Origin: Pseudomonas phage PhiPA3
Sequence record: HQ630627.1
Reading direction: 5' to 3' (one strand)
DNA length: 64,000 nt
The first letter of the stretch is position 1. Every line of letters starts with the position of its first letter. A program made the translations under genes and the position numbers. Positions 1,033 to 64,000 of the stretch are shown in pieces. The notes under the pieces were generated by a model, which saw nothing but the letters and a program-made list of their open reading frames with translations, was not told the DNA's origin and did no database searches.

Positions 1033-1058
1033 TAAAGCCTACATTACAAATGAGATGT
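1033..1058 (+). promoter_or_regulatory. inverted repeat AGCCTACAT-N8-ATGTAGGCT overlapping a TACATTAC (TATATTAC-like) motif
   Basis: 9-bp perfect inverted repeat seen in sequence; a different type from the GC/UUCG hairpin family. Confidence 0.3.
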
Positions 1059-1094
1059 AGGCTAACCCAATCTAATGATCAAAAGGATATTCTA

Positions 1095-1780: not shown

Positions 1781-1822
1781 ACGACATAGAGCCCCTCCGT
1801 AATGGAGGGGCCTTATGCCGTT
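1781..1822. terminator. bidirectional extended palindromic element (ACGACATAGA-gcccctcc-gtaat-ggaggggc-CTTATGCCGTT)
   Basis: GC stem-loop between convergent genes, flanked by CATA and TATGCCGT arms. Confidence 0.6.
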
Positions 1823-1830
1823 ATTTTTTT

Positions 1831-2262
1831 TTATGTTTCCGCAAACGTTAATGTAGCTGACGTTGTCGGTAGATATGCCATGGAGCGAGCTGATGGCTGT
1901 AGTGTTACAGTGTTCCCAGTGATCGGTACTTCAATATACTCATCAGGTTCCATTGGTATCCCAATGGTGTCACGCAATACACGAACAACGTCACGGTTCG
2001 TTGCGTATTGTCCACGCTTTCCCGGAATCTTAACCCCACGAAGGTCTTGCTCAATCGGACGACGATTAAAGTTGATAACTTGCGAACCAGTAAAATTCAA
2101 ACTGGTTGAAGTAGCTCGAATCGTTACCCGTGAATTACACTGCCCCTGTAACCAGATTTCAATATTATCCCACGTCACATCACTTAACGTGATGGGCGGG
2201 TTGATCCTGTTAGCTGCATTGAATTCATTGAGCAAAGCTTGACGAACATTCTTAACATGCAT
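1831..2262 (-). CDS. hypothetical protein (ATG at 2262 with GAGGTGG RBS; ORF track starts at 2313)
   Basis: ORF plus RBS; begins 8 nt after the upstream stop. Confidence 0.45.
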   Translation of the reverse strand: MHVKNVRQALLNEFNAANRINPPITLSDVTWDNIEIWLQGQCNSRVTIRATSTSLNFTGSQVINFNRRPIEQDLRGVKIPGKRGQYATNRDVVRVLRDTIGIPMEPDEYIEVPITGNTVTLQPSARSMAYLPTTSATLTFAET

Positions 2263-2270
2263 AGCCCACC

Positions 2271-5356: not shown

Positions 5357-8059
5357 ATGGCTCAACGTCAAGTTAATGAGGTGGCGTATCCGAAGCTACA
5401 GGCGATCCGCTTGGGATCAACTGCAACGCCGACGAACGCACTCCTCAACCTTCTGCGTAAGGATCCAAACGCATTGGGTACGGAAGCCGCGAAACCTCGG
5501 GTTAACGTAAATCGTTTCACCCTGGACAAGGTTTCGCGCGACACCTCACAAGAGATCATCGATAGCGACTCTATTATGCAGTTGCTCCCTGACCTTGAGT
5601 TGGTGGAGACTGTATATGTAGGTTCGATTATCGACCCGAAGGCATTGTCAGATACTGATTTGACCTTCTCTGTCGATCAGGCTATTTTCGACAGTGAACT
5701 CTCCAAACACCTGCTTGAGCCTGTTGAGAAGTATTTTAAACGAGACTATAAGATTGACGAGCGCTTGGACCTGATCCTACGCGATTGTTTGTTCCGTAAA
5801 GGCGCTTCGATCCTAGCCGTTCTTCCCGAGAACGTACTAGATAATCTTATTAATGGTCGTCGTCAGGTTTCTATGGAGACCTTCGAACAGATCCGTAATC
5901 GCGTAGAGAATACTACTACTGATAACCTCGGGTTTTTGGGGCATCCCACTGATCAAACTATCTCGTTGGAGGGTTACGCTAATAACGCTACCACCAACCG
6001 GATACGCGGTGACAAACATCTTACCGTCACCGATAACTTCAACGTTTTGAAAGTCCCTGGGATGTCCCGCCGTGTACGCGAGATGTCAATCGCGAAGAAA
6101 CTTCGCGGTAACCAGGTTTCTTTGGAAGCTGAGGTACATAACTTCGGCAACGATGAAATCGAGAAGCTGTATCAGAGTCGCTTAGGGGGTACGGAACATA
6201 CACAAGTTGTAACGTCTCCTCGTTACATGGACCGTCCTTCGGTTGGCCATCCGCTGATCCTACCGTTACCAATGGAATCGGTCGTACCGGTGTTTGTTCA
6301 AGGTCGTCCTCATGAACATATTGGTTATTTCCTGTTGGTGGACCAACATGGTTATCCTATTTCGAAAGATTCGACCCGCGACTTCTATGGTGAACTGCAA
6401 GCTGGTTGGAAAGGTGGTAAGAACTCAGATAACAACTCCGAAGTTCTGCGACTGACCCGCGAAGCATTGGGTAACAATACTAAGCGACAAGATTTTGAAA
6501 TTGATGAGATCCAACAAACGTACAACGCTATTATCGTGAACGATCTGAACAACCGTCTGCGTAATGGCATGTACGACCAAGAACTGGAAATTGGGATCAC
6601 TGAAGAAATTCAGCGGATCATGCTCTATCGTTCTTGGAAAGCTAAGAATACTCAACTGGTATTCATTCCAGCAGAACTACTCACCTACATTGCTTTTGAC
6701 TATAATGTCAATGGTATCGGTGAGACGTTGCTGTCTCGGTCAAAAATGATCGCCACTATGCGTTCGACTCTGCTCATGGCCGAGACCATCGGCGGGATGC
6801 GTAACGCGGTAGGTCGTAAACGAGTGAATATCACACTCGATCCAGATGACGTTGATCCGGAACAAACGATCTCAAATATTCAATCCAACATCATGGAATC
6901 TGCACATCGTAGTTTCCCGTTGGCCGCTCCAGACCCTACTCAGGCAATGGACCACCTAATCCGTTCTGGCTTTGATTTTGCCATCAATACCAATGGTGCT
7001 GATTATGCAGAGACCAAAGTTGAATACGATGATTACAACACATCGGTAAACGCAGGTAATCCAGACCTGCAAGACCGTCTGCGTCGTATGCATATTTCGG
7101 GTATGGGTGTACCACCTGAGAAAGTGGATCCGATGTCTTCACCGGACTTCGCAACATCGGTGGTACAAAACGACCTCGTAATGTCCCGTCGTGTACGCGA
7201 TAAACAGAAGACATTCTGTCAACATCTGTCTAAGTTCATCCGTTCGTTCGTTACTCACAGTTCCATCATCCGTGAAGAATTGAACAAGATTGTAACAGAC
7301 AATGCTAAGATGTTGATTTCCCCAGAATTCAAACACATGACCGTACAGGAAGTGGTGGATGAATTCATCCTGTCGATCGAAGTTTCCCTACCGACTCCTG
7401 ACAACACGCAACATGAGCGTCAGTCTGAAGCATTGGAGAACTATGATCGCCTGCTGACTACTGCATTGGAATCGTATATCACTCCGGAACTATTCCCGGA
7501 TGAACTGACTCAGATTCCTGGATTGACAGACCAAGTCATGAATCATGTGAAAGCAATGTTCAAACGCCAGTTCATGGCACAGAACAATATTCTGCCGGAA
7601 CTGAATATCTTGACTGAGATGGACGGTGATAAACCGGCATTTAGTCTGTTGGACTTCGCAGCACTGCAACAAGGTACAATGGCGAAAGCCTTCTTGGCCT
7701 TTGCCAAGCATACACAGGAATCCAAACTCCATCTGGAGAAACTCTATAAGAACGTTATCGAAGGTAACGACGAGAACGGAATTACTCCTGGTGGCGGTGG
7801 TGATTTTGGGGGTGGCAATGACTTCGGTGGTGGAGACGAGTTCTCTAACATCGATGAAGGTGGTGGTGATATGGACCTGGGTGTCGATGGTGGCACTGGG
7901 GACGGCAGCGAGCAATCCGATGATTTCGGTGCTCCTGAATCGGATGTACTTGATGAGGGTACAGAAACCGATGAAGACAAACCACAAACCGATGGACTCG
8001 AAGACCCAATGGCTGAGGCGGAAGCTGAAGAAAACGGGAAAGACGAGGACAAGTTGTAA
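5357..8059 (+). CDS. hypothetical large virion-type protein (900 aa) with Gly-rich acidic C-terminal tail (GGGGDFGGGNDFGGGDEF...)
   Basis: long ORF with a low-complexity acidic tail; a portal or inner-body-like role is speculative. Confidence 0.55.
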   Translation: MAQRQVNEVAYPKLQAIRLGSTATPTNALLNLLRKDPNALGTEAAKPRVNVNRFTLDKVSRDTSQEIIDSDSIMQLLPDLELVETVYVGSIIDPKALSDTDLTFSVDQAIFDSELSKHLLEPVEKYFKRDYKIDERLDLILRDCLFRKGASILAVLPENVLDNLINGRRQVSMETFEQIRNRVENTTTDNLGFLGHPTDQTISLEGYANNATTNRIRGDKHLTVTDNFNVLKVPGMSRRVREMSIAKKLRGNQVSLEAEVHNFGNDEIEKLYQSRLGGTEHTQVVTSPRYMDRPSVGHPLILPLPMESVVPVFVQGRPHEHIGYFLLVDQHGYPISKDSTRDFYGELQAGWKGGKNSDNNSEVLRLTREALGNNTKRQDFEIDEIQQTYNAIIVNDLNNRLRNGMYDQELEIGITEEIQRIMLYRSWKAKNTQLVFIPAELLTYIAFDYNVNGIGETLLSRSKMIATMRSTLLMAETIGGMRNAVGRKRVNITLDPDDVDPEQTISNIQSNIMESAHRSFPLAAPDPTQAMDHLIRSGFDFAINTNGADYAETKVEYDDYNTSVNAGNPDLQDRLRRMHISGMGVPPEKVDPMSSPDFATSVVQNDLVMSRRVRDKQKTFCQHLSKFIRSFVTHSSIIREELNKIVTDNAKMLISPEFKHMTVQEVVDEFILSIEVSLPTPDNTQHERQSEALENYDRLLTTALESYITPELFPDELTQIPGLTDQVMNHVKAMFKRQFMAQNNILPELNILTEMDGDKPAFSLLDFAALQQGTMAKAFLAFAKHTQESKLHLEKLYKNVIEGNDENGITPGGGGDFGGGNDFGGGDEFSNIDEGGGDMDLGVDGGTGDGSEQSDDFGAPESDVLDEGTETDEDKPQTDGLEDPMAEAEAEENGKDEDKL

Positions 8060-8098
8060 CGACATAAAAGCCCCACCTTCGGGTGGGGCTTTATGCTC
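8059..8098. terminator. bidirectional extended palindromic element (AACGACATAAAA-gccccacc-ttcg-ggtggggc-TTTATGCTC)
   Basis: convergent gene ends, GC stem, UUCG loop. Confidence 0.65.
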
Positions 8099-8100
8099 TC

Positions 8101-9405: not shown

Positions 9406-9472
9406 ACAATCTTATGTGAATTTCACATCATTACGCTAACAACCGCGCACTAGCGCTTCAAAGGAGGGCGCG

Positions 9473-20496: not shown

Positions 20497-20527
20497 AAAA
20501 CCTCCCTCGGTTCTCGGGGGAGGTTTT
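20497..20527 (+). terminator. hairpin AAAACCTCCC-loop-GGGAGGTTTT followed by TTTTATAATG
   Basis: palindrome followed by a T-tract, seen directly. Confidence 0.5.
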
Positions 20528-20582
20528 ATAATGCTATGTAGGCTGAGTAACTTTTTTCTTAAGCCCCATTAGAGGTTTTAGC

Positions 20583-22633: not shown

Positions 22634-22670
22634 TATACTGGAGTCCCTTAGGGGACTCCTTTATGTCGAC
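22634..22670 (+). terminator. hairpin ggagtccc-ttag-gggactcc followed by TTTATGTCGAC
   Basis: seen directly. Confidence 0.55.
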
Positions 22671-22757
22671 TTTAAAATGCCTTACTGTATGAGTCTTATT
22701 TCTCTTAAGACGTGTAAGAAGTAGTTGAAAGACTCTCTTCACCCAAAGGAAGACACA

Positions 22758-28779: not shown

Positions 28780-28812
28780 AAAAATGGCCTCCGTTTGGAG
28801 GCCATTTTATTT
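28780..28812 (+). terminator. hairpin AAAATGGCCTCC-gttt-GGAGGCCATTTT plus T-tract
   Basis: 12-bp perfect palindrome. Confidence 0.6.
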
Positions 28813-28869
28813 CGTCTTATTTATCAGAGAAATAATATATTGGGGCCCAGTTAAAATTCAGGAAGCGAT

Positions 28870-30417: not shown

Positions 30418-30431
30418 AAGTGGTGAAAATT

Positions 30432-31619
30432 ATGGGTATTCTTGTTGCTAATGACGGTGATGTGGTAGTAGCCTCTATTGCGGCTCGTGATGAGATCGCG
30501 ATTAAGCGCCCACAAATGCTCGTCCTGGTAGAAGATGCAACTGCTGACCCTGTCTTCGGTGGTGGGTCCGTCCAGTATATTTGGGATCATGTTGCGTTGG
30601 GCTGGTCTCCAATCTGGTCTTCTCGTAAACCTAACCTTACGTTTGTAACCGAAGAGAAAGTTATTACGGGTGGTCAAGTTACTGCTGACCATGTCGTTAA
30701 AGATAATGTCGTGTTGTCGGCTATCATTCTGGATACCGACAATACAATCCTAAGTGATGCTGTTCCAACTGTAAGTGGTACTGCGATCAATTTAGGGACT
30801 AACACGTACGACGGTAAGAGACTACATTACACGTATGCGTATGGTAGCCTCACTCAACTCATCGAAAATATTTGGGAAACCAAAGCTGACCTGACTTACG
30901 TCAATACGAACTTTGCTAGTCAGCAATATGTTCAGGATGCAATAGGTGCAGGGAATTTCCTAACCGCAGCCGACTTGGATGGTTATGCCACTGAAACCTG
31001 GGTAACCAATCAGGAATATCAGACCAGTACTGACGTTGATAGTAAAATCACCGCTGCGCTCTCTGGGTATGCGACAGTAGCGTTTGTTAATGGTAAAGGT
31101 TATCAAACGGCTTCTGATGTTACAACATACGTAACGAGTCTTGGTTATCAAACGAGTAATCAAGTTGATTCTAAGATCTCCGCAGCCCTTAACGGTTATG
31201 CAACACAGAGCTATGTAACTTCACGTGGTTACATTACCGATGCCGCTAATGACGGTAAGAAATACATCCGCACTAACCAAGGTTGGGCGGAATTGACGGT
31301 TAGTTTCGATACATATTCTCTGTTGTCGAGTACTTCTGCTTCTGGGGATTATGTAGTTAACGCTACCAACCAACAGTCGGTTGCTTTAACAGCGACGGTT
31401 ACACGTAATGTAAGCTTTACCAATGGACCGGCTAACCGTACGATCACAACAGCATTAATCATGGTGGGTGCTAAGGCACCCAATGTCACCGGTTCCAATG
31501 TTAAATGGCAGGCCAATACTGCACTGACCGATGCAGATATGGGCGCAACCAAAACAGTTATCGTGGCGTTCTGGGATGGCATCGACACTTGGATCCTGAC
31601 CAAAGGTCCTTATTACTAA
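30432..31619 (+). CDS. fibre protein with tandem GYATxxYV ~30-aa repeats and a C-terminal tip domain paralogous to the C-terminus of the 25493 protein
   Basis: C-terminal ~110 aa alignable (SFDTYSLLSS...TKTVIVAFWDGIDTWILTKGPYY vs TFDTYNLKSS...NKTVMAALWDGETTWIIARGAAY). Confidence 0.55.
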   Translation: MGILVANDGDVVVASIAARDEIAIKRPQMLVLVEDATADPVFGGGSVQYIWDHVALGWSPIWSSRKPNLTFVTEEKVITGGQVTADHVVKDNVVLSAIILDTDNTILSDAVPTVSGTAINLGTNTYDGKRLHYTYAYGSLTQLIENIWETKADLTYVNTNFASQQYVQDAIGAGNFLTAADLDGYATETWVTNQEYQTSTDVDSKITAALSGYATVAFVNGKGYQTASDVTTYVTSLGYQTSNQVDSKISAALNGYATQSYVTSRGYITDAANDGKKYIRTNQGWAELTVSFDTYSLLSSTSASGDYVVNATNQQSVALTATVTRNVSFTNGPANRTITTALIMVGAKAPNVTGSNVKWQANTALTDADMGATKTVIVAFWDGIDTWILTKGPYY

Positions 31620-31621
31620 AA

Positions 31622-31666
31622 GACGGCATATCGCCCCACCCGAAAAGGTGGGGCTTTATGTTGTTA
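31622..31666. terminator. bidirectional extended palindromic element (GACGGCATAT-cgccccacc-cgaaaa-ggtggggc-TTTATGTTGTT)
   Basis: sits at the strand switch between the fibre module (+) and the DNA-metabolism module (-). Confidence 0.65.
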
Positions 31667-32377
31667 TGCACGGAACATACTGAAGTACATAGCGTCGATA
31701 AATTCGAAGTCCATGTGAATCAGCTTCTCCATGCGAAATCGCCAGAGCGTATACTTCTTAGCTTCGACATTAATGTTTGATACGTCGTGCTCAAAGATCT
31801 TAGGTCCAATGAAATTGAAACAGTTCATTTTGACCTTACCCAGCTCTTCTGCATGATACTTTACCCACGGAATAAAATCGTAAGTAATGTACATAGCAAA
31901 TAAGGCGTCCATAAAGAACGGGGACAGTTCTTCCATGGAGTGTTTAACGATCTCGACGGTGGTAGATTGCCCATAGAGCTCTTTGATGATCTCTACGAGT
32001 TGTTCTTTATATTCACCATCTAAGTCATAGGGATGGATATTCACACATACACACACTTCATCCAACGGATTCCCCATGTTGTCCATGCGGTTAACGTTGT
32101 CTTCAGCTAGTACGCGCATGAGGAAAGGCATGATACCCGTCATTACTGAAGCATTAAGGGTATCTGCTGTATTTTGTCCGCCCCGCTCGGCATAGGCTTC
32201 TGCAAACTGTTCGTTAGTAATACGCCCTTTGGTTAACACATCCCAGAAATCATTCTCTCGTGTCCAGTAGTCTCTGGTCTTAACCAAATCCACAGCGGCC
32301 TCTGGACAGATGCGTTGAATGGTTCCTAGACGTGTATCCAAAAGCGCATCCAAATCAATCAAGATACGCTTAAGCAT
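31664..32377 (-). CDS. hypothetical protein (237 aa)
   Basis: ORF. Confidence 0.5.
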   Translation of the reverse strand: MLKRILIDLDALLDTRLGTIQRICPEAAVDLVKTRDYWTRENDFWDVLTKGRITNEQFAEAYAERGGQNTADTLNASVMTGIMPFLMRVLAEDNVNRMDNMGNPLDEVCVCVNIHPYDLDGEYKEQLVEIIKELYGQSTTVEIVKHSMEELSPFFMDALFAMYITYDFIPWVKYHAEELGKVKMNCFNFIGPKIFEHDVSNINVEAKKYTLWRFRMEKLIHMDFEFIDAMYFSMFRA

Positions 32378-36089: not shown

Positions 36090-36160
36090 TCACTTTATTG
36101 ATATTGAGAGTAATTTTATGTTAACAGTGTCGCGACTGTGATTAACTCTAGGATCCTAAC

Positions 36161-37123
36161 ATGAAACTCAATGTACTGACCAAGTATTCTCCAGGTATCG
36201 AAAACCACACCATCGAAGATGCGGTGTTTGATCCTTCACTCAACAAGTTCTTCACTGAAGGTGATCCGAACTCTGCTGAACAGACTGCTGAAACAGAAGC
36301 ACTGCCGATTGACCAGACTCCTACGGACAAGCTTTTTGATGCATTGCAAACCGTGTCAACTGAAGCTGGATTTATCGGTAATGTCTCTAACTGGTTTGCT
36401 CGTAAAGCAGGTAACCTGAACATGAACGTTCGGGAAGGTTTCCGTTATCTGACCAGTTGGAACTACGATCCCATGCAGAAACTTAATGTTCTGCAAATGC
36501 GTAACTTTGTTGAAACTTTGGACTACATGACCATTGAAACGCTGCGTGTATCTCAACCCGCTGGTTTTCGTGGTGAACTCCTACCGTATACAACTGGGCT
36601 GCAAAAGCGTGCTCAGATCATGGCTGAGGTAGTAGATAAGGTTATTAAACCTGCCACCGCTCGTTTTGGTCATTATCTGTCCACTCCGGAAGAACGTGCA
36701 GAACGTCGTCATTTCCAATATGGTGCTGAACTGGGCCATGACCTGGATGCACTTATCAAAGCTGACGCTGCTCATTTCTCCAGCAATCGTGTAGCCACTG
36801 CCAAGTTTGGTGAACTATTTAGTTCAATGAATGATTTCATTGAATGTGAACGCAACATGGTAGATGTCAATACCATCCTCAATGGCGGTACTACTTCCAC
36901 CGTGAAGAATGCCGTAGAAGCCCTGAGCCAAACTGCAACTGCTCTGGTGGATCGCATTGCCAAGGATAAAGACATCAAGACTTCCAGCGAATTGGCTAAG
37001 ATGATTGCTGAAGAGATCGCTGAAGTAGCCCGTTGGGTTGAATGGTACTCGGTACAGATGACACGCATCATCGAAACCAACAACGTACTGTATTCGATCG
37101 AACAAGAGCTGCGCGCTATGTAA
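36161..37123 (+). CDS. hypothetical protein (320 aa)
   Basis: ORF with AGGA RBS; divergent from the UvsX-like gene. Confidence 0.5.
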   Translation: MKLNVLTKYSPGIENHTIEDAVFDPSLNKFFTEGDPNSAEQTAETEALPIDQTPTDKLFDALQTVSTEAGFIGNVSNWFARKAGNLNMNVREGFRYLTSWNYDPMQKLNVLQMRNFVETLDYMTIETLRVSQPAGFRGELLPYTTGLQKRAQIMAEVVDKVIKPATARFGHYLSTPEERAERRHFQYGAELGHDLDALIKADAAHFSSNRVATAKFGELFSSMNDFIECERNMVDVNTILNGGTTSTVKNAVEALSQTATALVDRIAKDKDIKTSSELAKMIAEEIAEVARWVEWYSVQMTRIIETNNVLYSIEQELRAM

Positions 37124-37167
37124 GACAACATATTGCCCTCTCCCGAAGGAGAGGGCTTATGCCGTCA
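37124..37167. terminator. bidirectional extended palindromic element (GACAACATATT-gccctctcc-cgaa-ggagagggc-TTATGCCGTC)
   Basis: between convergent genes; overlaps both stop codons. Confidence 0.65.
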
Positions 37168-37575
37168 CACCTGTTCCCGACGTTCTCTCATGCAGAACTG
37201 CATCAGCTGTTTGAGGTCTTCTATAAACACACATTCGTCCGTGTACAGAAGCCAGCACGGGGTCTTCCGCGCAATGCGTTTATAGAACTTCTCGGAGGTG
37301 AGATCGTTTTTGTCGATCGGAAGAATGCCCTTCCACAGATAAGGCCCAAACAGGGTCGGAAGTCGAAGCGCACTCTCGTCACGAACCAAGCGCATCGTCG
37401 AATTAAGTCTTGCAATCCGAGAACACTCATGGTCACGACATTGCACTAAAGCAGCATGCAATGACGCCATCACACACAGCCGCTTGAGATCATCATCCAC
37501 ACGATTCCAAAAGAATAGCCATAATCCTTCGGCAACTTTGCGGACGGGTCTCATGATTCTGTTTGTAATGCTCAT
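37165..37575 (-). CDS. hypothetical protein (136 aa)
   Basis: ORF. Confidence 0.45.
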   Translation of the reverse strand: MSITNRIMRPVRKVAEGLWLFFWNRVDDDLKRLCVMASLHAALVQCRDHECSRIARLNSTMRLVRDESALRLPTLFGPYLWKGILPIDKNDLTSEKFYKRIARKTPCWLLYTDECVFIEDLKQLMQFCMRERREQV

Positions 37576-43203: not shown

Positions 43204-43240
43204 CATAATGGCGGGGAATCAATAAGATTCCCCGCCATTA
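43204..43240 (+). terminator. hairpin ATGGCGGGGAATC-aataa-GATTCCCCGCCAT
   Basis: 13-bp palindrome. Confidence 0.5.
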
Positions 43241-43921: not shown

Positions 43922-43969
43922 CAACCTTATGTAGTTTCAAACCTCGATATCCCCTTAGTGGAGCTCAAA

Positions 43970-45712
43970 ATGGCCCGTGTTAAACTGTTTCAAATGATCA
44001 ATGCGATCTCAATGGAAGACGTCGAGAAAGCTAACGACGCAAACGTAGAAGTTGAAGGTAAGAAAGACCTCGAACCGCAACTCAAAGGCGATGAAGGTGA
44101 GAAGCCTAACGCAGATGACGTTGATGCCGCTGTTACCAATACCCAAACTACCGAACCGGGTCCGTCCGAAGGCGGTGGCGACGGTACCGCTCAGACTGTT
44201 GACGTGAATCACGTTGAGTCCAGCGATAAAGTAGAAAACCATGTTAAGCCCGTTGACCAAGCCAACAATGGCGAAGGTGACGACGCTCCGGAAAAAGTCA
44301 ATGCTGACGACGATAATGTCGCCACCACTACTTCCGTAGAAGAACATGATAACGACGGTCTGCAAACCATCGAGTCTGGTGAAACCGAATGTGTCGGTGA
44401 AGCGGATGACCTGGTTATGGACATCGAAGAAGTCACCAATGACGTAGATGCTTCCGGTATTACTGAAGCCATCGATTCCAAGTCGGATGCCGTTCAGGGT
44501 ATCGTTGAAGAAATCCGCGAAATGGAAAACGTTGAAGCGGCCGTAGAATCTTACCTGGGCGTTCTGCGTGGCATGCGTAACCGTGGCACCGAGATTTCCC
44601 CGGAACTGCAAGAGACCATGCGCATCGGTCTGGAAGCCATGGATTCGACCTTCTTCAAAGGCTCTGTGGTTTCTGTTGAAGACATCGATGATGGTGAAGG
44701 TCACAAGACTGCTCGTGACGCTACTGAAAGCAAACTGTCGGCTAAAGCTAAGCAGATCTGGGAAGCTCTGAAGCGTGCCTTTATGCGTGCTCTGGCTGCT
44801 CTGCAAGACGTATTCGTTTCCGTCATGAATAACGCCGGCAAACTGAAAGAACGTCTGGGTAAGCTGCGCTCGGAAGTTAACGTTCTTGAAGGTGGTAAAG
44901 AAGTCAAAGTTGCCAACGCCATGGGTCTGTCCATGAATGGCGAGTGGGTAGGTGACTCAGATCAAGGTCTGAAGAACATTCGTCGTACCGCTGACGAAGC
45001 CCTGCTGAACTTCCCCAGCAAACTGGCTGATGGTCTAGTTGCACTGAATCGTCGTTATCGCGACAAAACTCAGGAAGGCATCGAAGCCTACGAAGAAGCC
45101 ATCAACTCGGTTATCAAGATCTACAACCAGTCCTTCACCAGCTTCAAGTCCAGCAATGCTCGTGGTGAAATCACCGATATTGACACCAGTCGCTACAACC
45201 GTATCCTGCTTGGTCCAGTAATGCCGGGTAACCGTGTTCTGGCAGTAGCTTTCAGTTCCACGAAGACTGAAAGCGGCGGTTCTGCTGTCGGTGACACTGA
45301 AGCCAAGAACCTCACCAGCGTGATCAAAGAGAAGCTCGCTACCCTGAACAGTGAAGCCTACTCCGGTACTGTGAAAACCCCGAGTGCTTCTGAAGCACGC
45401 GCTGTTGTTGCTGCTCTGGAAGGTATCGTGGATAGCGTACTGGCTCGTAACGAAGGTCGTACTTCACTCAAGAAGCTGGCTAACATGGTTCAGGGCATCG
45501 CTCAAAACCGTAATGAGAATCCGAGTGCTATGGCCAAAACTCAAGGTGGTCATTGGGTTGACCAGATTGCTATCTCGGTAGCTCGTCGCGCCCTGGAAAC
45601 CAACCACGAGTTGATCGCATACATCATGCGCACCATCAAGACCTACATTGGCTTCCTGGAAGCCAGTATCAAGGCCGAAGCTGGTGGTGAAACCATCAAC
45701 CAAACTGCTTAA
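43970..45712 (+). CDS. hypothetical protein with strongly acidic N-terminal ~180 aa; paralog of the 45722 gene
   Basis: RIGLEAMDSTF / LGKLRSEV / LSMNGEWVGD...LNFPSKLADGLVAL align with SIGLESIDPNF / LGKLGSKT / LSIDGNFVGT...LNQYPKSVVKIARD in the next gene. Confidence 0.5.
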   Translation: MARVKLFQMINAISMEDVEKANDANVEVEGKKDLEPQLKGDEGEKPNADDVDAAVTNTQTTEPGPSEGGGDGTAQTVDVNHVESSDKVENHVKPVDQANNGEGDDAPEKVNADDDNVATTTSVEEHDNDGLQTIESGETECVGEADDLVMDIEEVTNDVDASGITEAIDSKSDAVQGIVEEIREMENVEAAVESYLGVLRGMRNRGTEISPELQETMRIGLEAMDSTFFKGSVVSVEDIDDGEGHKTARDATESKLSAKAKQIWEALKRAFMRALAALQDVFVSVMNNAGKLKERLGKLRSEVNVLEGGKEVKVANAMGLSMNGEWVGDSDQGLKNIRRTADEALLNFPSKLADGLVALNRRYRDKTQEGIEAYEEAINSVIKIYNQSFTSFKSSNARGEITDIDTSRYNRILLGPVMPGNRVLAVAFSSTKTESGGSAVGDTEAKNLTSVIKEKLATLNSEAYSGTVKTPSASEARAVVAALEGIVDSVLARNEGRTSLKKLANMVQGIAQNRNENPSAMAKTQGGHWVDQIAISVARRALETNHELIAYIMRTIKTYIGFLEASIKAEAGGETINQTA

Positions 45713-45721: not shown

Positions 45722-46900
45722 ATGACCACCATAGCCGCATGGGACGAAGTTTGCAGTGACTGGGATAAGATCACCAAGATCCAATCCTCGCTCGAACGCT
45801 TTGCGGATGTGCTGGCTGGACGTGACGAAGCTACTGAGGAGATGGCGCAAGTCATCTCCATTGGTCTGGAGTCGATCGACCCTAACTTCGATATCAAAGA
45901 AGGTAGTAAGATCACCCTCCGAGCTATTAAAGAAGGGATCGTGATGGCAGCTAAGGCTGCCCGCGATCTTATTCGTTATCTCTGGGAACTCCTGAACTCA
46001 TTCTACGTCAAATTCACTGGTAGTATCCGTCGAGTTCGTCGTACACAAGAAGGCATTAGTCGTCGACTGGGTAAGCTCGGTTCTAAGACCACTTACCAGA
46101 AGATGTCTGTGTCGGGTATCCAGCGTTTGTCCATTGACGGTAACTTTGTTGGTACCGAACTGAGCAACCTGCAAGATATCCACCAACTAACCAACTACAT
46201 TCTTAATCAGTATCCCAAGAGCGTCGTTAAGATTGCTCGTGACGCTAGTCGCCAGTTCCTGAACATTCTGGATCAAGGTGGTGAGCGTCAGGTCGTGATG
46301 GAAAATGCAGTTGATGCATTTGCTGATATTCTCCAGCGGGACTTCATACCCCCGCAAGGTTTCCGTCCTGTGCAACCACGGGAACTGGGTAGCCTTGAGA
46401 AAGGTGTTAATCGCAGTGAGATCCTGCCAGGTAACGTAGCCTTCCTCTATACTCCGCCAGATGTAATTCGCCAACAGCTGAAGTCTGGTAAGGGTAACCT
46501 GGAGAATATCATCAAGAGTTCGTTCACTATGCAATTCTCTGAATTGCAGCTCAATGTGGCTGACCGTTCTGAACGTGAGATCGAGGTGCCCTCAGTCCGT
46601 ACTTTGAGTGAAATCACCGAAAAGATTTCCAGCATCCTGTCTCTGGCCGAGCGGGCTGAAGCGGGTCGAAAGGACTTCGCCACGGTCAAGGTTGTAGTGG
46701 ACGACGCTATTCGCCAAATTGCTGAGCGTAGTAGTGAAGAGAACAATTCCGGTAATGTGCTATTACATATCACGGGTGAGATCTCTAAGAAACTAGCTGA
46801 GCCCATGGGTTTCTATACCCACTGGTTGGCAGTAACGCTGAACGTGTGGCTGAACTTTGTAAGTCAGTGCATTAAGCATTACGAAGACGAAGGCGTATAA
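45722..46900 (+). CDS. hypothetical protein, tandem paralog of the 43970 gene
   Basis: AAGGA RBS; the paralogy is seen in the translations. Confidence 0.5.
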   Translation: MTTIAAWDEVCSDWDKITKIQSSLERFADVLAGRDEATEEMAQVISIGLESIDPNFDIKEGSKITLRAIKEGIVMAAKAARDLIRYLWELLNSFYVKFTGSIRRVRRTQEGISRRLGKLGSKTTYQKMSVSGIQRLSIDGNFVGTELSNLQDIHQLTNYILNQYPKSVVKIARDASRQFLNILDQGGERQVVMENAVDAFADILQRDFIPPQGFRPVQPRELGSLEKGVNRSEILPGNVAFLYTPPDVIRQQLKSGKGNLENIIKSSFTMQFSELQLNVADRSEREIEVPSVRTLSEITEKISSILSLAERAEAGRKDFATVKVVVDDAIRQIAERSSEENNSGNVLLHITGEISKKLAEPMGFYTHWLAVTLNVWLNFVSQCIKHYEDEGV

Positions 46901-46942
46901 CGGCATAATAGCCCCTCCTTCGGGAGGGGCGTTATGTTATCA
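46899..46942. terminator. bidirectional extended palindromic element (AACGGCATAATA-gcccctcc-ttcg-ggaggggc-GTTATGTTATC)
   Basis: convergent gene ends; overlaps both stop codons. Confidence 0.65.
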
Positions 46943-47206
46943 TTGACTTACTGTCATCTTCGAGTTATCAGTGAGTGTATGGCCACAACTTGCGGCATCT
47001 CCGACTTTACAGATGGGGATTCCTTGTACGCGCAGTTTAGTAGAACCCTGTACCATACGTGCATTGTTGTGTGACCCGTTACCATGTCCTCGAATCTGAT
47101 CACCAAGCTGGGTTGCTACAATACCGCCAATGCGTAATTTAAGTGCACCTGGTCCCAACACCGTACCACCTGCTACAGCGATACCGATTCTTCCGACAGC
47201 TGGCAT
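46940..47206 (-). CDS. PAAR-repeat spike-tip protein (88 aa, gp5.4-like)
   Basis: LGDQIRGHG and KVGDAASCGH PAAR-type motifs; AGGGGA RBS; start placed at the internal ATG of ORF 46940..47335. Confidence 0.65.
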   Translation of the reverse strand: MPAVGRIGIAVAGGTVLGPGALKLRIGGIVATQLGDQIRGHGNGSHNNARMVQGSTKLRVQGIPICKVGDAASCGHTLTDNSKMTVSQ

Positions 47207-50561: not shown

Positions 50562-50581
50562 ATTTAAACCCGTTACACGCC

Positions 50582-50589
50582 TATATTAC
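50582..50589 (+). promoter_or_regulatory. TATATTAC motif (phiKZ-type early promoter consensus as I recall it) 24 nt upstream of the 50614 start
   Basis: exact 8-mer; recurs at 52305. Confidence 0.3.
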
Positions 50590-50826: not shown

Positions 50827-51112
50827 ATTCGATAGTCTCGCAGGTTTGGTATGTTTCCTCGTATTGCTTTTCTTCGTAGGGAAGATTATCTTGTCGGATA
50901 TTTTCTCAACTCTAGAGAAGCAACAACATGATGAACTGCATAAACAACATGCGGAGCAGTTACGTCTTGATGCCGAACGCTATCAAGAACGATTAAACGA
51001 AATTGGTCGGGGTCGAATAGACATTGGGTATGTTTTCGATTACGAAGATTGGTTACTAGATAAACAAGACCATCAGCGTAATGGAACCCATTATGAAGTC
51101 ATCAACATTTAG
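50819..51112 (+). CDS. small membrane protein (about 97 aa, N-terminal TM; start 50807 or 50819)
   Basis: hydrophobic LAGLVCFLVLLFFVGKIIL; overlaps the upstream gene end. Confidence 0.4.
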   Translation: MDKFDSLAGLVCFLVLLFFVGKIILSDIFSTLEKQQHDELHKQHAEQLRLDAERYQERLNEIGRGRIDIGYVFDYEDWLLDKQDHQRNGTHYEVINI

Positions 51113-51140
51113 CCTCCTTCGGGAGGCTCTATGTCGTAAA
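51104..51140 (+). terminator. hairpin agcctcc-ttcg-ggaggct plus CTATGTCGT
   Basis: UUCG stem-loop plus TATG. Confidence 0.5.
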
Positions 51141-51838: not shown

Positions 51839-52234
51839 ATGTCTCAAGTAGCTCGTATGGCCACCGCTCTGCATCAACTCAACATCGCCATGTCTCAGGT
51901 TCAGGAGGCTGCCAAGCAACTGATGAAGGAAGGTGATCCGCGCACCGTGGAAAAGTTCGCGGATGAATACAGCGGCCTGACCTTCCGTGAAGCCCACATC
52001 TACCTCTTGGACTCCGGCACCAAAGTGGCCTACACCATCGAACAACTGAAAGAAGTGCTGTACCTGCAAGACCTGGAATCCATCCACCCGGATCGTAAGG
52101 GGTGGCGGGAAGCCGCCAAGGCTGCATCGCACACCATCCTCGCCATCAAGGAGCTGCGCACTCAGTTCCCTGAGCTAGATGTCCGTTCGGCGAAGCTGAT
52201 CGTCGAAGCCTATCGTGAGGGTCTGTTTGAATAA
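51839..52234 (+). CDS. hypothetical protein (131 aa)
   Basis: AAAAGGAAA RBS. Confidence 0.5.
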   Translation: MSQVARMATALHQLNIAMSQVQEAAKQLMKEGDPRTVEKFADEYSGLTFREAHIYLLDSGTKVAYTIEQLKEVLYLQDLESIHPDRKGWREAAKAASHTILAIKELRTQFPELDVRSAKLIVEAYREGLFE

Positions 52235-52244: not shown

Positions 52245-52287
52245 TGACGGCATAACGCCCCTCCTTCGGGAGGGGCTTATGTCTACT
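52245..52287. terminator. extended palindromic element (GACGGCATAAC-gcccctcc-ttcg-ggaggggc-TTATGTCTAC) plus T8
   Basis: the left arm is the exact reverse complement of the TTATGCCGTC consensus. Confidence 0.65.
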
Positions 52288-52304
52288 AAATTTTTTTTCA
52301 CATC

Positions 52305-52312
52305 TATATTAC
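52305..52312 (+). promoter_or_regulatory. TATATTAC motif 45 nt upstream of a small unannotated ORF
   Basis: exact 8-mer in an AT-rich intergenic region. Confidence 0.3.
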
Positions 52313-52357: not shown

Positions 52358-52499
52358 ATGGGTTGGAAAAGTTATGTTGCCCTGTCATTGGGCGTGGTAC
52401 TGGGCGCCGTGATCTTCGTTGCAATCAGTGAAGATGGTTTACCCGAGCGAATCGAAAACATCGAAGAGGCTGATGCCAGTCCGATCAATATTGAGTGAT
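52358..52499 (+). CDS. small TM protein (46 aa; MGWKSYVALSLGVVLGAVIFVAIS...) not in the supplied ORF track
   Basis: ATG with GAGGTAAATAAAA upstream; single hydrophobic helix; below the 60-aa cut-off. Confidence 0.35.
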
Positions 52500-53039: not shown

Positions 53040-53498
53040 ATGAGCAGCATCATTCGATACAACATCAAGACTGCGAATAAACCGATTCTTGATGTTCTAC
53101 ATCTGTATCTGGGTATTCGTGAAAGAGTCGATGAAGTCAACAAGACTGTAATCGACGGAACTACTGTAGAACTGAACCTAGTCCTGGTAGTAAACCATCG
53201 CTATATCCGAGACTATGATGAGATTGCCGATACATTGGCAAATCTATCAAAAGGAACTCCGTATGAACTCTACATACTGAGTAATCGATTCCTGTTCAGT
53301 TGGATGACTGATAACTTCAATGACCTGGGTGGTTTACAAGAACGTTATCAGACTGTTTTGGAAAGTGATGTCTATGGTACCGTATACGACACCACCAGAG
53401 CACGATACACGAAAACACCGGAATGGCGATCCCCACATTTAGGATGGGCTGAGACCTTTAATCGGGGTTTCAATAGTTTGGTGAGTGTATTTGGATAA
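53040..53498 (+). CDS. hypothetical protein (152 aa) in an AT-rich, atypical-codon segment
   Basis: ORF with AAGG RBS. Confidence 0.45.
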   Translation: MSSIIRYNIKTANKPILDVLHLYLGIRERVDEVNKTVIDGTTVELNLVLVVNHRYIRDYDEIADTLANLSKGTPYELYILSNRFLFSWMTDNFNDLGGLQERYQTVLESDVYGTVYDTTRARYTKTPEWRSPHLGWAETFNRGFNSLVSVFG

Positions 53499-53542
53499 GT
53501 CGGCATAAGCCCCACCCGAAAAGGTGGGGCAATATGTCGTTA
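53499..53542. terminator. bidirectional extended palindromic element (GTCGGCATAA-gccccacc-cgaaaa-ggtggggc-AATATGTCGTT)
   Basis: convergent gene ends. Confidence 0.65.
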
Positions 53543-54058
53543 GAAACCAAGAAGTGCTTCTTCTTCTTTGCGTGCCTTTTCACGAATAGCTTCCATGCGT
53601 TCAGTGAATTCTTCCGAAGTCTCAGCGATCACACCGATTTCGTCTTCACCTTCAGCATGGGTAAATTCGCCCAGATCTTCTTGATCGATTTGTGGTTCCA
53701 TACCACGACCATCACCTTCAGTGGCGACGAATGGGTTCTTGTTCTTTGCATTTTGAATAAATGCAGCCATACCAGCCAATAGGTCTGCCGAAGTACGGTT
53801 GGCTTCCTGATCGACACTGATACGCTTGTTAGCGATCGCTGTACGATCCATGGAGTCCATGACCTTAAGCATGGTATCAACAGATTCTTTATCTGTAGGG
53901 ATGGTTCCTACTGGATTGGAGAACGCCAGCTGATGCAGAATGCGTTGTTTGGTATTCTGAGTATACTGGATCTGTTCTTCATAGGTCATGTCCGAGTATT
54001 GCCGTTCAGGCTCTACTGGTACAAATACGTGGGGCTTCTCAGCGGGATACTGTTCCAT
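53540..54058 (-). CDS. hypothetical acidic protein (ATG at 54058 with GAGGTG RBS; ORF track starts at 54133)
   Basis: RBS-supported start. Confidence 0.45.
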   Translation of the reverse strand: MEQYPAEKPHVFVPVEPERQYSDMTYEEQIQYTQNTKQRILHQLAFSNPVGTIPTDKESVDTMLKVMDSMDRTAIANKRISVDQEANRTSADLLAGMAAFIQNAKNKNPFVATEGDGRGMEPQIDQEDLGEFTHAEGEDEIGVIAETSEEFTERMEAIREKARKEEEALLGF

Positions 54059-54132
54059 GGGACACCTCTCGTTGGTAAAAATACCCAACGGAATAACTAT
54101 ATGCCATAAAATGCGGATTGGAGTTCTATACA

Positions 54133-54675
54133 ATGATTACAAGGCTACGCCAATGGTGGCGCGGACTATCGGCAACACCCAAACAAAAGTATACCCGCTG
54201 GCTGGAAGAGATCAATGAAATCCCTACGTTATCAGAGGAACTCCCCGACGCATTAGTTGAGCTCTGGCGGCGAATCGACGTTGATGCAATCAGTCGTCAA
54301 AACCCCCGAGTGATGATGTCAGCCTTCTTCGAGCTGCGTCATGCCAATATCCAGGAATTGATCCAAACCCTACATCAGGTCAATGACCACGTTGCATCGG
54401 GATCAGCTTCTAAGATTGAATACCTATCGAAGAACGATTTCATTAAGCATCGCGAAATGTCCTTGGATAATTATTTCGTGGATGCTGAAAATTACGCTGT
54501 CGATATTAAAGAACATCTATCCCAACTTAAAGACTTGCTGATTACCCATGGTCAGATTCTGGAAATTAAGGAGGAGAGTTTTTATCGTCGCATGTTAGGT
54601 CGCTTATACTTCGATGTACTAGCACTGACAGAAACACTCGTTAAACATATGCAAGAGGGCACCGATATGAAGTAA
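54133..54675 (+). CDS. hypothetical protein (180 aa; ATG at 54133 with GGAG RBS)
   Basis: ORF. Confidence 0.45.
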   Translation: MITRLRQWWRGLSATPKQKYTRWLEEINEIPTLSEELPDALVELWRRIDVDAISRQNPRVMMSAFFELRHANIQELIQTLHQVNDHVASGSASKIEYLSKNDFIKHREMSLDNYFVDAENYAVDIKEHLSQLKDLLITHGQILEIKEESFYRRMLGRLYFDVLALTETLVKHMQEGTDMK

Positions 54676-57125: not shown

Positions 57126-57162
57126 CAACATAAACGCCTCCCTTCGGGGAGGCTTTATATTT
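57123..57162 (+). terminator. hairpin (GACAACATAAA-cgcctccc-ttcg-ggggaggc-TTTATATTT)
   Basis: seen directly. Confidence 0.55.
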
Positions 57163-57483: not shown

Positions 57484-57526
57484 GATATAAAACCCTCCCC
57501 GCCAAGGGAGGGTTTTATGCCGTTCA
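57484..57526 (+). terminator. hairpin AAAACCCTCCC-cgccaa-GGGAGGGTTTT plus ATGCCGTTC
   Basis: seen directly. Confidence 0.55.
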
Positions 57527-57609: not shown

Positions 57610-57921
57610 ATGAAATGGTCTTTTATCAACGAGCCATTCCGGCGCCTTTTACGGGTGCGGGACGTGGTTTGTAACCGAGATTATTATCTTACTACTGAAG
57701 GTTGGACGCCGGATGAAGTGGATAATACTCTCGCATATAATACGGTAGCAGAGTATAATAAAGCTCTGGCCCGTGCTAAAATGGATGTATTAAACGGTTT
57801 GTTCAGCAACAACGTGTTGTTGGACGGTCTTGATGTAACCCAGGAAGTCATCGACGGTAACGTTAAGCTTGTCAGGTGGCCTCCAAGTTGTGAACTACAT
57901 CACGTGCAGCTAGCTGCCTAA
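57610..57921 (+). CDS. hypothetical protein (103 aa)
   Basis: AAAAGGG RBS. Confidence 0.45.
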   Translation: MKWSFINEPFRRLLRVRDVVCNRDYYLTTEGWTPDEVDNTLAYNTVAEYNKALARAKMDVLNGLFSNNVLLDGLDVTQEVIDGNVKLVRWPPSCELHHVQLAA

Positions 57922-57966
57922 GAACATAAAGCCCTCTCCTTCGGGAGAGGGCGATTATGCTTTCTT
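57921..57966. terminator. bidirectional extended palindromic element (AGAACATAAA-gccctctcc-ttcg-ggagagggc-GATTATGCTTTC) plus T10
   Basis: convergent gene ends. Confidence 0.65.
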
Positions 57967-57972
57967 TTTTTT

Positions 57973-58806
57973 TTATCGTTTCCGCATGTAGTGCGGAATA
58001 CGAGCTGGCTGTTTGCGCGTCCAACCGAGTTGTTCGATCAGTTCGCTTACATCCATATTCGCATCAGACTCCAGACCCAGTGATTTCTGTTTCATTGCCT
58101 GATCCTGCATACCCCAGAGAGTAGCAGGTGTAATGACAACTTCAGTTTCAGCAAAGCTTTCTAGTGCTGGTGACTTATACTTGTTAGCGATGTAAATACC
58201 GCCTTCACCCACAAAGTCCCATGTAGAAATCTCACGGGTGTATTTGATGCCACGCATCATGTCATCTTGAGTAATCGAACGTACCGAACAATAGGTGTTG
58301 ATACTCGGATTATCGAGCGACTCTTTGAAGATATGGCCGAATGGACCGTAAGGCTTGACTTCACCTACGACCATTTTGACCCGACGACCTTCCTCATTGA
58401 TGGTATCAACAATGGACAGTGCACGGATGTGCGCACAGACGCGATCGTCATCGATTTTGCGGATACGTTGCAGATATTCCCGATCAGACAGTTGTCGTTT
58501 AACAACACGACCTTCAACCAGGATTTCTTCCCAGGGTTCAGGATGCTTGAACTCCATGAACAGTACGCCCTTTTTCAGACGACGCATCAGCGGGCTGTCA
58601 GGGTTGAACATGGAGACACCACTGGCTTCGTCATAAAACATACCAGCAGAGTTATGGGTACCATAGGCACCGAGAACGACTGTGTAATAACCGTCCGCAC
58701 TTGGGGCAAGAATGCCCTTCTTGTCAGTACCGGCGAGCATCGTACAACCAATGCGGACTTGGTTGGCTACGTTGTTAGCGCGCTGCGGTTGCGTTCCGAA
58801 TTGCAT
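57973..58806 (-). CDS. hypothetical protein (about 277 aa; ATG at 58806, TTG at 58812)
   Basis: ORF; ACGGGG RBS. Confidence 0.5.
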   Translation of the reverse strand: MQFGTQPQRANNVANQVRIGCTMLAGTDKKGILAPSADGYYTVVLGAYGTHNSAGMFYDEASGVSMFNPDSPLMRRLKKGVLFMEFKHPEPWEEILVEGRVVKRQLSDREYLQRIRKIDDDRVCAHIRALSIVDTINEEGRRVKMVVGEVKPYGPFGHIFKESLDNPSINTYCSVRSITQDDMMRGIKYTREISTWDFVGEGGIYIANKYKSPALESFAETEVVITPATLWGMQDQAMKQKSLGLESDANMDVSELIEQLGWTRKQPARIPHYMRKR

Positions 58807-58817
58807 TTGCAACCCCG

Positions 58818-62346: not shown

Positions 62347-62544
62347 TTAAATACCCAGCAGTTTAGACACACGAGCTACCAGGGCAGCTTGGATATCCGG
62401 TTTAGTCAGAAACTCGCCTTCCAGTGTGGCGGCGTGAGAGTCAGAGCCCAGGGACCGAACGATAGCTTCGGCCCCCAGTTCAGCAACAGCGGTCAAAACT
62501 GCTACGTTCTGACCGTGTGCAACGTTACTACTTAGCTTTTGCAT
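62347..62544 (-). CDS. RNAP beta subunit extreme C-terminal segment (65 aa from an internal ATG; +1 frame relative to the upstream beta fragment)
   Basis: LTAVAELGAEAIVRSLG matches beta [20 protein letters not shown]; C-terminal ALVARVSKLLGI matches beta FNVLLKEIRSLGI; GAGGAA RBS 6 nt before the ATG. Confidence 0.5.
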   Translation of the reverse strand: MQKLSSNVAHGQNVAVLTAVAELGAEAIVRSLGSDSHAATLEGEFLTKPDIQAALVARVSKLLGI

Positions 62545-63784
62545 TTGTGGTTCCTCGATATACGCCTGCAATATGCTTGGACAATGCACGGAGCAAAATG
62601 CTCGTGGTTGAAATGAGTTTAGGAGACATTACCATCCGTTCCTCTACAGAAGTATTGCCGAAGATCAGATCAATCGGAGTACCGTCTTCCGTTTCGTTAC
62701 GACCTTCCATTACCCGAGAGATAACAGTTTTCATCTGGTTACCGAGTACACCTTTATCACCGACACCACAAGAGATGTCATGGTCGATATAGATGCGGAT
62801 AACCATGTGGTCTGGTTCAAGGATTTGACCTTTCACACGGAACGACGAATCCACTTCACCGGTAAACACCGGTTGATTCAGAGACTTCGCAATATCTGCA
62901 CGTTGTTTGTCAGAGGCGCGAGCGATCGCTTGCAGGTTCTCGGACATGTCTTCGATGTCACCATGATAGTAACATTCGATCTTCGACACAGTACCGACAA
63001 CTTTAGCACGCGGGGTGTGCGCAGCCAGTCGACGCAGCGTTTCAATAGCCGCATCGCCAAACAGCGTGTTCTCTGCGGTTTCGGGGTCTTCGATTATACA
63101 TAGAATTGAATTCAGGTCGACATGGTCTCCCCGCTTCACCAATTCTGAAACATGTTGATCAAAGCGAACAGTGATGTTCTTAATGTCGGTGGTCTGTGTT
63201 TGTAGGCGCACAGCCAGTTCTTTCGAAATGGTTGAGCCGTCCTCCAATGTATCGAGGTTATCACAGAAAGCCACCGTTGCCATACATCCAGCTTTCCACA
63301 ACACTTGGCCCGGAGCATAACGGTCCGCAGTGAAGTACTTACGGTTGTACGCGATCGTATCACCATGTTTGAACTTGTCACCTTTCTTCAGATCAGTTAC
63401 CAAGTCATGTGGATAGTTCACACCAGCAGCGGTGCCATGAACGATCCCCAGAGGCGAACTCACGATTTCTCCATCAGCGTATTTAACGGTAATGCCATGC
63501 TCGTCAACCGAGATAACTTCACCGTCTTGTTCAGCAGCAGTAGCGAAGATGGAACTGGTACGCTGTGCTACAATTTGCTCGTAGCCGGTACGCACTGGAG
63601 TTACTTCGTAACCATCAGCATAGATACCTTGCTGTTGCTGAATACTGATAAATCCGACGCGTTTCATCGAGATCTTCAGATAGTTCGTTAGACTATCCCG
63701 TGCGTTTAAGCACTGCTCTAGGCTTTCCCTAGATGTCGAGACTATATCTTCCCCTACGTGAGAGGCTTCCCATTTCGAGCCCAC
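62528..63784 (-). CDS. multisubunit RNA polymerase beta subunit, C-terminal half (split-gene fragment as in phiKZ-like phages)
   Basis: [14 protein letters not shown] matches [47 protein letters not shown] matches [56 protein letters not shown] matches [47 protein letters not shown] matches GTPVDIVLNPLGVPSRMN (E. coli RpoB numbering ~650-1120); GTG start. Confidence 0.75.
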   Translation of the reverse strand: [418 protein letters not shown]

Positions 63785-64000
63785 TTGAGCCCTACACCGT
63801 GATAAGCGGTTAGTCGTTGAACCTTACCCATATCTTTCGACTTAGGGTCTTGGCTGCTGATTGTCCAATCTATCTCGTTTTCAAACCGTCAATACCTGCT
63901 TTCGCGGTACTTGTGGTGAGACAGCTCTAAGGACGTTCCAGCAATTAGAGAAGATACCATCTAGATATCGCTATCTAGTGGGACTGTATCTATTAAATCT

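Follow-up and report, generated by a model that had tools for sequence, protein, structure and literature searches.

Hairpin-adjacent TATG elements at gene ends of Pseudomonas phage PhiPA3 most probably represent phiKZ-type bidirectional terminators and not late promoters

The window analysed here is a stretch of 64,000 nucleotides (nt) of the genome of PhiPA3 (HQ630627.1), a phiKZ-like Pseudomonas phage, in which GC-rich hairpins at gene ends are directly followed, on both strands, by the tetranucleotide TATG; the element between two convergent genes at 46900-46940 is taken as the focal case. According to our analysis, these hairpin-adjacent TATG elements are, with high probability, bidirectional terminators of the phiKZ type and not late promoters. 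The first-pass annotation of the window had left two readings side by side, namely TATG as part of a termination or RNA-end signal, or a combined unit of terminator and late promoter whose convergent copies would drive antisense RNAs. The former is supported by its match to the consensus derived from mapped phiKZ 3' ends, which mostly lie no more than 3 nt from the G of TATG, while the latter is not supported, in view of the phiKZ start map (no start at the G of 72 hairpin-adjacent TATGs), the different context of the promoters and the existence of separate promoter TATGs. The termination signal is already mapped in phiKZ and in 201phi2-1, and the PhiPA3 copies are newly added to it.

All eight hairpin-plus-TATG sites listed in the first-pass annotation are present at the positions given there. 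Seven of them lie between convergent genes, as it had proposed, while the eighth (52245-52287) lies between two + strand genes. The boundaries of the elements and their flanking genes are as follows.

46900..46940, both strands: focal putative two-sided terminator, AACGGCATAata GCCCCTCC ttcg GGAGGGGC gtTATGTTAT, between the internal head protein gene 45722-46900 (+), orthologue of phiKZ gp163, and the PAAR-like gene 46940-47206 (-), orthologue of gp163.1
1781..1821, both strands: two-sided, convergent, genes 1050-1766 (+) and 1831-2313 (-), gp125/gp126 orthologues
8059..8099, both strands: two-sided, convergent, genes 5357-8059 (+) and 8101-9405 (-), gp129/gp130 orthologues
31623..31664, both strands: two-sided, convergent, genes 30420-31619 (+) and 31664-32377 (-)
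37125..37165, both strands: two-sided, convergent, genes 36161-37123 (+) and 37165-37575 (-), gp153/gp154 orthologues
53500..53540, both strands: two-sided, convergent, genes 53040-53498 (+) and 53540-54133 (-), gp168/gp169 orthologues
57921..57963, both strands: two-sided, convergent, genes 57610-57921 (+) and 57973-58812 (-), gp174/gp175 orthologues
52247..52285, both strands: two-sided, tandem (+ +), after gene 51839-52234 (+) and before a 46-amino-acid open reading frame (ORF) at 52358-52498 (+)

At the eight sites the stem is perfect, GC-rich and 8-9 bp long (GCCCCWCC or GCCCTCTCC) and encloses a loop of 4-6 nt; the stems encountered are GCCCCTCC, GCCCCACC or GCCCTCTCC, the loops TTCG, CGAA, GTAAT or CGAAAA. 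The distance of 0-3 nt noted earlier between hairpin and TATG was confirmed, the motif on the + strand starting 1-3 nt past the G+C core, with a spacer of 0 nt when the outer A-T pairs are counted into the stem. CATA, i.e., the TATG of the - strand, precedes the stem at a similar distance at all eight sites, and the exact TATG is found on 16/16 sides of the eight elements. Conservation exceeds the four bases, with RACRRCATA ahead of the stem and TATGYYGT behind it forming one motif on both strands; among the 22 hairpin-adjacent copies of the window, positions 5 and 6 are pyrimidines in 21/22 each, position 7 is G in 15/22 and position 8 is T in 17/22, and the copies of the window read GCCCCTCC-TTCG-GGAGGGGC-NTTATGYYGT.

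Such an arrangement is not expected by chance. TATG occurs 339 times on both strands of the 64 kb (128 kb in all), which gives a probability of 0.016 for one TATG in a 6-position window, of 2.5e-4 for one on both sides, and of ~5e-24 for at least eight two-sided elements among 22 intergenic hairpins. All copies are intergenic, ~5-40 nt from a stop codon, and none of the 16 strong hairpins inside genes of the window carries the motif. Of a canonical bacterial intrinsic terminator, in which a U-tract of 7-9 nt comes after a GC-rich hairpin, the elements have the hairpin; RNA folding predicts it to be stable for either strand, with energies of -19 to -25 kcal/mol (z -4.8 to -6.4), the focal element reaching -25.1 kcal/mol (+) and -22.3 kcal/mol (-) with z ~ -4.9. 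The tail holds ~5 T per 8 nt, interrupted by the conserved A and G, and several copies pass a simple terminator scan.

In phiKZ, ONT-cappable-seq delimited 133 termination regions, 61 predicted intrinsic terminators share the consensus 5'-BCCYCCCCHWWDGGGRRGGBYTTATKYYGT-3', and six terminators between convergent genes are bidirectional (Putzeys 2024, PMC10914365). For 201phi2-1, the commonest terminator motif ('motif A') is described in the text as one that 'strongly resembles' the phiKZ motif, and 15 termination sites are called bidirectional (PMC11512511). The running text of the two papers (PMC10914365, PMC11512511) makes no mention of TATG, or of the late-promoter core, in the tail. The elements of the window fit the phiKZ motif base for base, in the GC-rich stem-loop as well as in the BYTTATKYYGT tail, and share with it stem composition, loop size, the TTATKYYGT tail, an intergenic position just past stop codons and, at the level of sequence, the bidirectional form, all seven convergent junctions being two-sided. 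They differ in that K is always G in the two-sided copies of the window, as opposed to G or T in phiKZ. The order of the genes in the window parallels phiKZ gp125 to ~gp178, and elements occupy orthologous junctions in the two phages (gp129/130, gp153/154, gp163/163.1 and gp168/169). In 201phi2-1, for which the comparison covers one junction, the orthologue of the focal element reads GACGACATATT-GCCCAGCC-TTAGT-GGCTGGGC-TTTATGCCGC.

The RNA ends of phiKZ were re-analysed from Tables S3 and S4 of bioRxiv 10.1101/2023.10.13.562163 (Putzeys et al.), with 122 starts and 118 termination sites placed on phiKZ bases 1-250,000. As a check of the coordinates, a TATG had its G at offset 0 or -1 from the reported site in 28 of the 37 'late' starts between 100 and 250 kb. 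The 102 strong phiKZ hairpins have 72 sides with a TATG within 9 nt, and on 30 of these a 3' end is mapped on the same strand, 4-8 nt past the stem in 28/30 cases and no further than 3 nt from the G, on either side, in 29/30. Another 42 hairpin sides, devoid of TATG, also carry 3' ends, 3-8 nt past the stem. Within the same bases, a start mapped at the G of a hairpin-adjacent TATG was found on 0/72 sides; P049, the sole start nearby, uses a second TATG located 5 nt further on.

Mapped 3' ends are found in phiKZ at the orthologues of five junctions of the window (8059, 37125, 46900, 53500 and 22640, the last being a one-sided terminator listed below). The focal junction corresponds to T076 at 167868 (+), 2 nt past the G; gp129/gp130 and gp153/gp154 have ends in both directions (T059 at 133067 (-) and T060 at 133099 (+); T070 at 158210 (-) and T071 at 158242 (+)); gp168/gp169 has T081 at 173797 (-), 1 nt from the G; and the counterpart of 22640 has T065 at 147179 (+), 1 nt past the G. 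The phiKZ counterpart of the element at 1781 (126769-126801) is likewise two-sided, and that of the element at 52247 has T078 at 172327 (+), followed by the early promoter P091 at 172385.

The first-pass annotation had rightly stated that late transcription of phiKZ-like phages starts at TATG: the core of the phiKZ late promoter is TATG with G as +1, necessary though not sufficient for initiation (Yakunina 2015, PMC4666361), and in a structure from 2026 the beta-like subunit of the phiKZ non-virion RNA polymerase (nvRNAP) binds the non-template-strand TATG in its GP123 pocket (PMC12809450). The elements of the window share the tetranucleotide with these promoters, and the G of the late start is the nucleotide near which terminated RNAs end. 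The context, however, is different. The 40 phiKZ late starts with a TATG are A/T-rich at -6 to -3 relative to its T, and YYG follows the G in one of them only; the late promoter needs no hairpin (the strong promoter P119L has none), lacks YYGT and faces a gene. In the hairpin copies the GC stem occupies those upstream positions, YYG(T) follows downstream, and in the phiKZ data no start is mapped there. At the seven convergent junctions of the window, moreover, both TATGs face the 3' end of the opposite gene and not a late gene.

True late promoters appear instead as separate TATGs, 4-40 nt downstream of terminators, as seen from the phiKZ starts (P078 of the tail sheath gene ~40 nt, P016 and P054 20-25 nt downstream) and from the sites conserved in the window. 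Five TATGs of mapped phiKZ late promoters are conserved there together with their context (9413, 20535, 22688, 36117 and 43928).

22688..22691, +: predicted core of the late promoter in front of the tail sheath gene, TTACTGTATGAGTCTT, with the same 16-nt context as phiKZ P078 (147221)
20497..20541, +: compact terminator-promoter unit, AAAACCTCCC..GGGAGGTTTT ATAATGC TATG T
9413..9416, +: predicted stand-alone late promoter TATG without hairpin, AATCTTATGTGAATTTCACATCATTACGC, in a context nearly identical to that of phiKZ P072 (134420)
36117..36120, +: predicted late promoter TATG, standing alone in front of the gp153 orthologue, GAGAGTAATTTTATGT, matching phiKZ P083 (157249)
43928..43931, +: predicted late promoter TATG, standing alone in front of the internal head protein gene 43958-45712, CAACCTTATG, matching phiKZ P088 (165041)

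The tail sheath gene is preceded by both kinds of TATG, that of the terminator at 22662 and that of the predicted promoter at 22688, with 26 nt between the two positions. Compact terminator-promoter units do exist at tandem junctions, and they use a second TATG: in the unit at 20497-20541 the hairpin is followed by a TTTTATAATGC tail and then by the second TATG (20535), whose predicted late start, G 20538, lies ~6 nt past the last paired T and ~10 nt past the G+C core. In the orthologous unit of phiKZ, the 3' end T064 (145649) and the late start P075 (145659) are 10 nt apart.

The presence of the motif on one or both sides of the hairpin follows the orientation of the genes. Two-sided copies occur at 7/7 convergent and 1/10 tandem junctions of the window (Fisher P = 4e-4), and at 11/16 convergent and 5/62 tandem junctions of phiKZ (P = 1.7e-6), as would be expected if a terminator needs its tail on the transcribed strand. 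The one-sided copies of the window, all at tandem junctions, comprise three with TATG on the sense side only and two on the antisense side only; they are given here with the terminator after the tail fibre gene.

22640..22670, +: putative one-sided sense terminator upstream of the tail sheath gene, GGAGTCCC ttag GGGACTCC ttTATGTCGAC, TATG at 22662-22665
51112..51138, +: putative one-sided sense terminator, tandem, GCCTCC ttcg GGAGGC tcTATGTCGTA
57493..57524, +: putative one-sided sense terminator, tandem, CCCTCCC cgccaa GGGAGGG ttttTATGCCGTT
28786..28817, +: putative tandem terminator after the tail fibre gene, GGCCTCC gttt GGAGGCC ATTTTATTTCGTC, with a K=T tail
43210-43236 and 57136-57153: tandem junctions with TATG on the antisense side only

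The tail at 28786 fits TTATKYYGT with K=T, as do those of phiKZ T067 and T088, and weaker tails (TTTTATTTCGTC, TTTTATTAGC or TTTATATTTG) are frequent at the tandem terminators of the window.

The element at the gp163/gp163.1 junction is conserved in six phages (PhiPA3, PA1C, Phabio, 201phi2-1, Viktualia and phiKZ), where CATA and TATG are invariant and the stem covaries, with compensatory changes at three pairs; in Noxifer it is absent from this junction, and the next gene there lies on the same strand. Over 29 two-sided elements, 21 from phiKZ and eight from PhiPA3 (1785, 8063, 31627, 37129, 46904, 52251, 53504 and 57925), the two bases that border the motifs on the outside, 5' of CATA and 3' of TATG, could form a Watson-Crick pair in 2/29 cases against 42% expected (P = 4e-5, a value that is approximate because the elements are not independent of one another). 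The prevailing combinations are G...T (14) and A...C (9), so that one half-site is TATGC and the other TATGT, and at the junction of the six phages the flanks switch between the G/T and the A/C state by a double change. Two-sidedness as a by-product of selection for an extended stem was considered and rejected, the YY positions showing no covariation, the spacers being unequal in 22/29 elements and the adjacent Watson-Crick pair being depleted.

Taken as terminators, the elements would work as follows. Once transcribed, the GC-rich inverted repeat would fold into an RNA hairpin and the polymerase would release the RNA ~5-8 nt later, inside the short U-rich tail UUAUGYY, of which TATG would be the distal part and no start signal, with late promoters being the separate TATGs in an AT-rich upstream context. 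At convergent ends one hairpin would serve both directions, hence the tail motif on both strands, with CATA upstream and TATG downstream. Since 42 phiKZ hairpin sides without TATG have 3' ends, TATG is a preferred and not an obligatory part of the tail, and the hairpin, which still gives 3' ends when TATG is missing, the main determinant. By analogy, we infer that the PhiPA3 polymerases terminate at the elements of the window as those of phiKZ do; release would presumably need no extra factor, and the full consensus may mark the strongest terminators.

In the bidirectional intrinsic terminators of bacteria, convergent genes share a hairpin that has an A-tract on one side and a U-tract on the other. 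The phage elements resemble them in the hairpin common to two convergent units, in the tail signal on both strands and in the pairable flanks, but their tail is the specific UUAUGYYGU with conserved G residues rather than a U-run, and the enzymes involved are phage-encoded, sigma-less multisubunit polymerases and not that of the host. The class II termination or pause signals of T7 RNA polymerase, on which bioRxiv 10.64898/2026.02.12.705533 touches, are sequence-specific, hairpin-free and read by a single-subunit enzyme; in both systems a short conserved sequence close to where the RNA is released acts on a phage polymerase, whereas in the phiKZ-type element the hairpin is the main determinant.

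Several points weigh against the terminator interpretation. A mapped 3' end is available for only 30 of the 72 TATG sides of phiKZ, some ends being masked (T037, T058, T083), and the starts P004-P007 (12-19 kb) and those beyond 248 kb were left out of the placement. ONT-cappable-seq cannot separate termination from 3' processing or trimming, may miss short or unstable antisense RNAs and has a resolution of ~2 nt. The functional evidence is transferred by analogy from phiKZ (proteins 35-53% identical to those tested). The classical U-tract model does not account for the strict G or for the YYGT. Finally, at phiKZ tandem junctions TATG is antisense-only in 13 cases and sense-only in 11, a frequency that a pure rule of a signal on the transcribed strand, acting in one direction, does not predict. 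Four - strand sites of phiKZ (T005, T037, T058 and T083) border on A-runs of the genome that lie a little upstream of a terminator hairpin and look like oligo-dT internal-priming artefacts hiding the real hairpin 3' end.

Among the other explanations, it seems very improbable that the hairpin-adjacent TATG is itself an nvRNAP start from which, at convergent junctions, antisense RNAs would enter the opposite gene at its 3' end. It is true that phiKZ late promoters need the core TATG with G as +1, some starts lie near terminator hairpins (P049 ~10 nt and P075 ~14 nt from the stem), and four phiKZ antisense RNAs have defined starts (PMC10914365); nevertheless, none of the 72 sides has a start at its G, the gp145, gp143, P016, P054 and P049 starts use a second, downstream TATG, TATG alone is insufficient for initiation (PMC4666361), the GC stem takes the place of the AT-rich upstream context, the downstream YYG(T) is shown by only 1/40 promoters, and the phiKZ counterparts of the convergent junctions have no listed start. 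Unlikely, too, is a promoter-like pause, in which the non-template-strand pocket of the nvRNAP beta-like subunit would read the TATG of the tail and halt the enzyme at or near the G, with the hairpin then releasing the RNA. Such a pause would be in line with the elemental pause rule of multisubunit polymerases (Y-1/G+1), which the YY and G after TATG fit, with the clustering of 3' ends at -1 to +2 of the same G where late RNAs start, with the invariance of TATG on all 16 sides of the two-sided elements of the window, with a conserved G that is unusual within a U-tract, and with the binding of non-template TATG by GP123. On the other hand, the 42 phiKZ sides without TATG have their 3' ends at the same distance from the stem, a distance that is the ordinary geometry of intrinsic termination; the position of the 3' end is tied to the stem no less closely than to the G (slope 0.07 +/- 0.44, standard deviation 1.9 vs 2.1 nt, with a spacer that hardly varies); and TATG-type tails are not enriched in phiKZ behind middle or late as compared with early promoters, a comparison based on five early cases. 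As these two attempts to show that TATG sets the 3' end failed or were inconclusive, recognition shared by promoter and terminator is speculation.

We also regard as improbable that the elements are stabilisers or processing sites of RNA 3' ends, to which transcripts ending further downstream would be trimmed or cut back, with the paired CAUAA...UUAUG forming an exonuclease-resistant end and selection acting on RNA stability instead of polymerase release. The predicted folds carry the stem on through CAUA/UAUG, the upstream CATA is common even at tandem junctions (the 13 antisense-only cases), where there is no antisense transcript to stop, and 3' ends obtained by ONT sequencing do not separate termination from processing; the mapped ends, however, are placed 5-8 nt past the stem instead of flush with it, which is the pattern of genuine intrinsic termination, and the YY positions do not covary between sides. 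Since the spacers are unequal between the sides in 22/29 elements and the pair just outside CATA/TATG is Watson-Crick in only 2/29, pairing of the flanks is not maximised. That the elements are repeated palindromic DNA (REP-/MITE-like, protein-binding or cruciform), intergenic by chance, is hardly credible: near-identical stems do recur (the window has GCCCCTCC-TTCG-GGAGGGGC twice and GCCCCACC three times, and GCCCTCCC is repeated many times in phiKZ) and the flanks are palindromic, but the elements are shared by six phages at orthologous junctions, where their stems have undergone compensatory changes, are found only just past stop codons and never inside genes, coincide with mapped RNA 3' ends in phiKZ, and are two-sided according to gene orientation.

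If the elements are phiKZ-type terminators, a hairpin followed by TTATGYYGT would be a reliable marker of the end of transcription units in PhiPA3 and related nucleus-forming phages, and the context would tell the TATGs apart, a GC stem with YYGT denoting a terminator and an AT-rich upstream region a late promoter. Phage engineering could profit from it, as the design of inserts, polar effects and uni- or bidirectional insulators depend on where units end. The sigma-less phage polymerases would end RNAs within a few nt of the same G of TATG at which late RNAs start, an overlap that, as the data argue, reflects ordinary hairpin geometry. Should the promoter-like pause prove true instead, one four-base signal would mark the beginnings of late RNAs and, behind a hairpin, the ends of RNAs, and the asymmetry of the TATGC and TATGT half-sites (27/29 pairs not Watson-Crick compatible) would need explaining in the same frame.

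Some further features of the window may be added. Its GC content is 47.5%, and the product of 45722-46897, next to the focal element, is identical to the PhiPA3 internal head protein AEH03610.1 by exact protein look-up. The pattern TATATTAC has only two matches in the window, at 50567-50589 and 52291-52312 (+), both intergenic and not above the count expected by chance; the latter, an early-promoter-like TTTTTTTTCACATCTATATTAC, lies 3' of the element at 52247..52285. As their positions correspond to those of the phiKZ early promoters P089 and P091, the two are probably early (virion polymerase) promoters of PhiPA3. Runs of 8-10 T, 8-12 nt past TATG, occur at 1822-1832, 52288-52298 and 57962-57975, with similar runs after elements of phiKZ at 126.8, 34.9 and 70.3 kb; such a run may act as a back-up U-tract or form the upstream, AT-rich portion of an early promoter. 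Between 44000 and 60000, matches to sigma-70-like promoters show no enrichment (16 vs 22.8 +/- 4.3 in shuffled sequence), in keeping with transcription that does not depend on the host polymerase. A search of the window against Rfam gave no family for the hairpin/TATG element, and its sole match was a group I intron at 63716-63997 (-) (RF00028, 59.9 bits, full-length model match). ORF 62528-63784 (-) has its 5' end at this intron or just downstream of it and matches the C-terminal portion of the beta subunit of a phage RNA polymerase, a virion polymerase of the phiKZ gp178 type.

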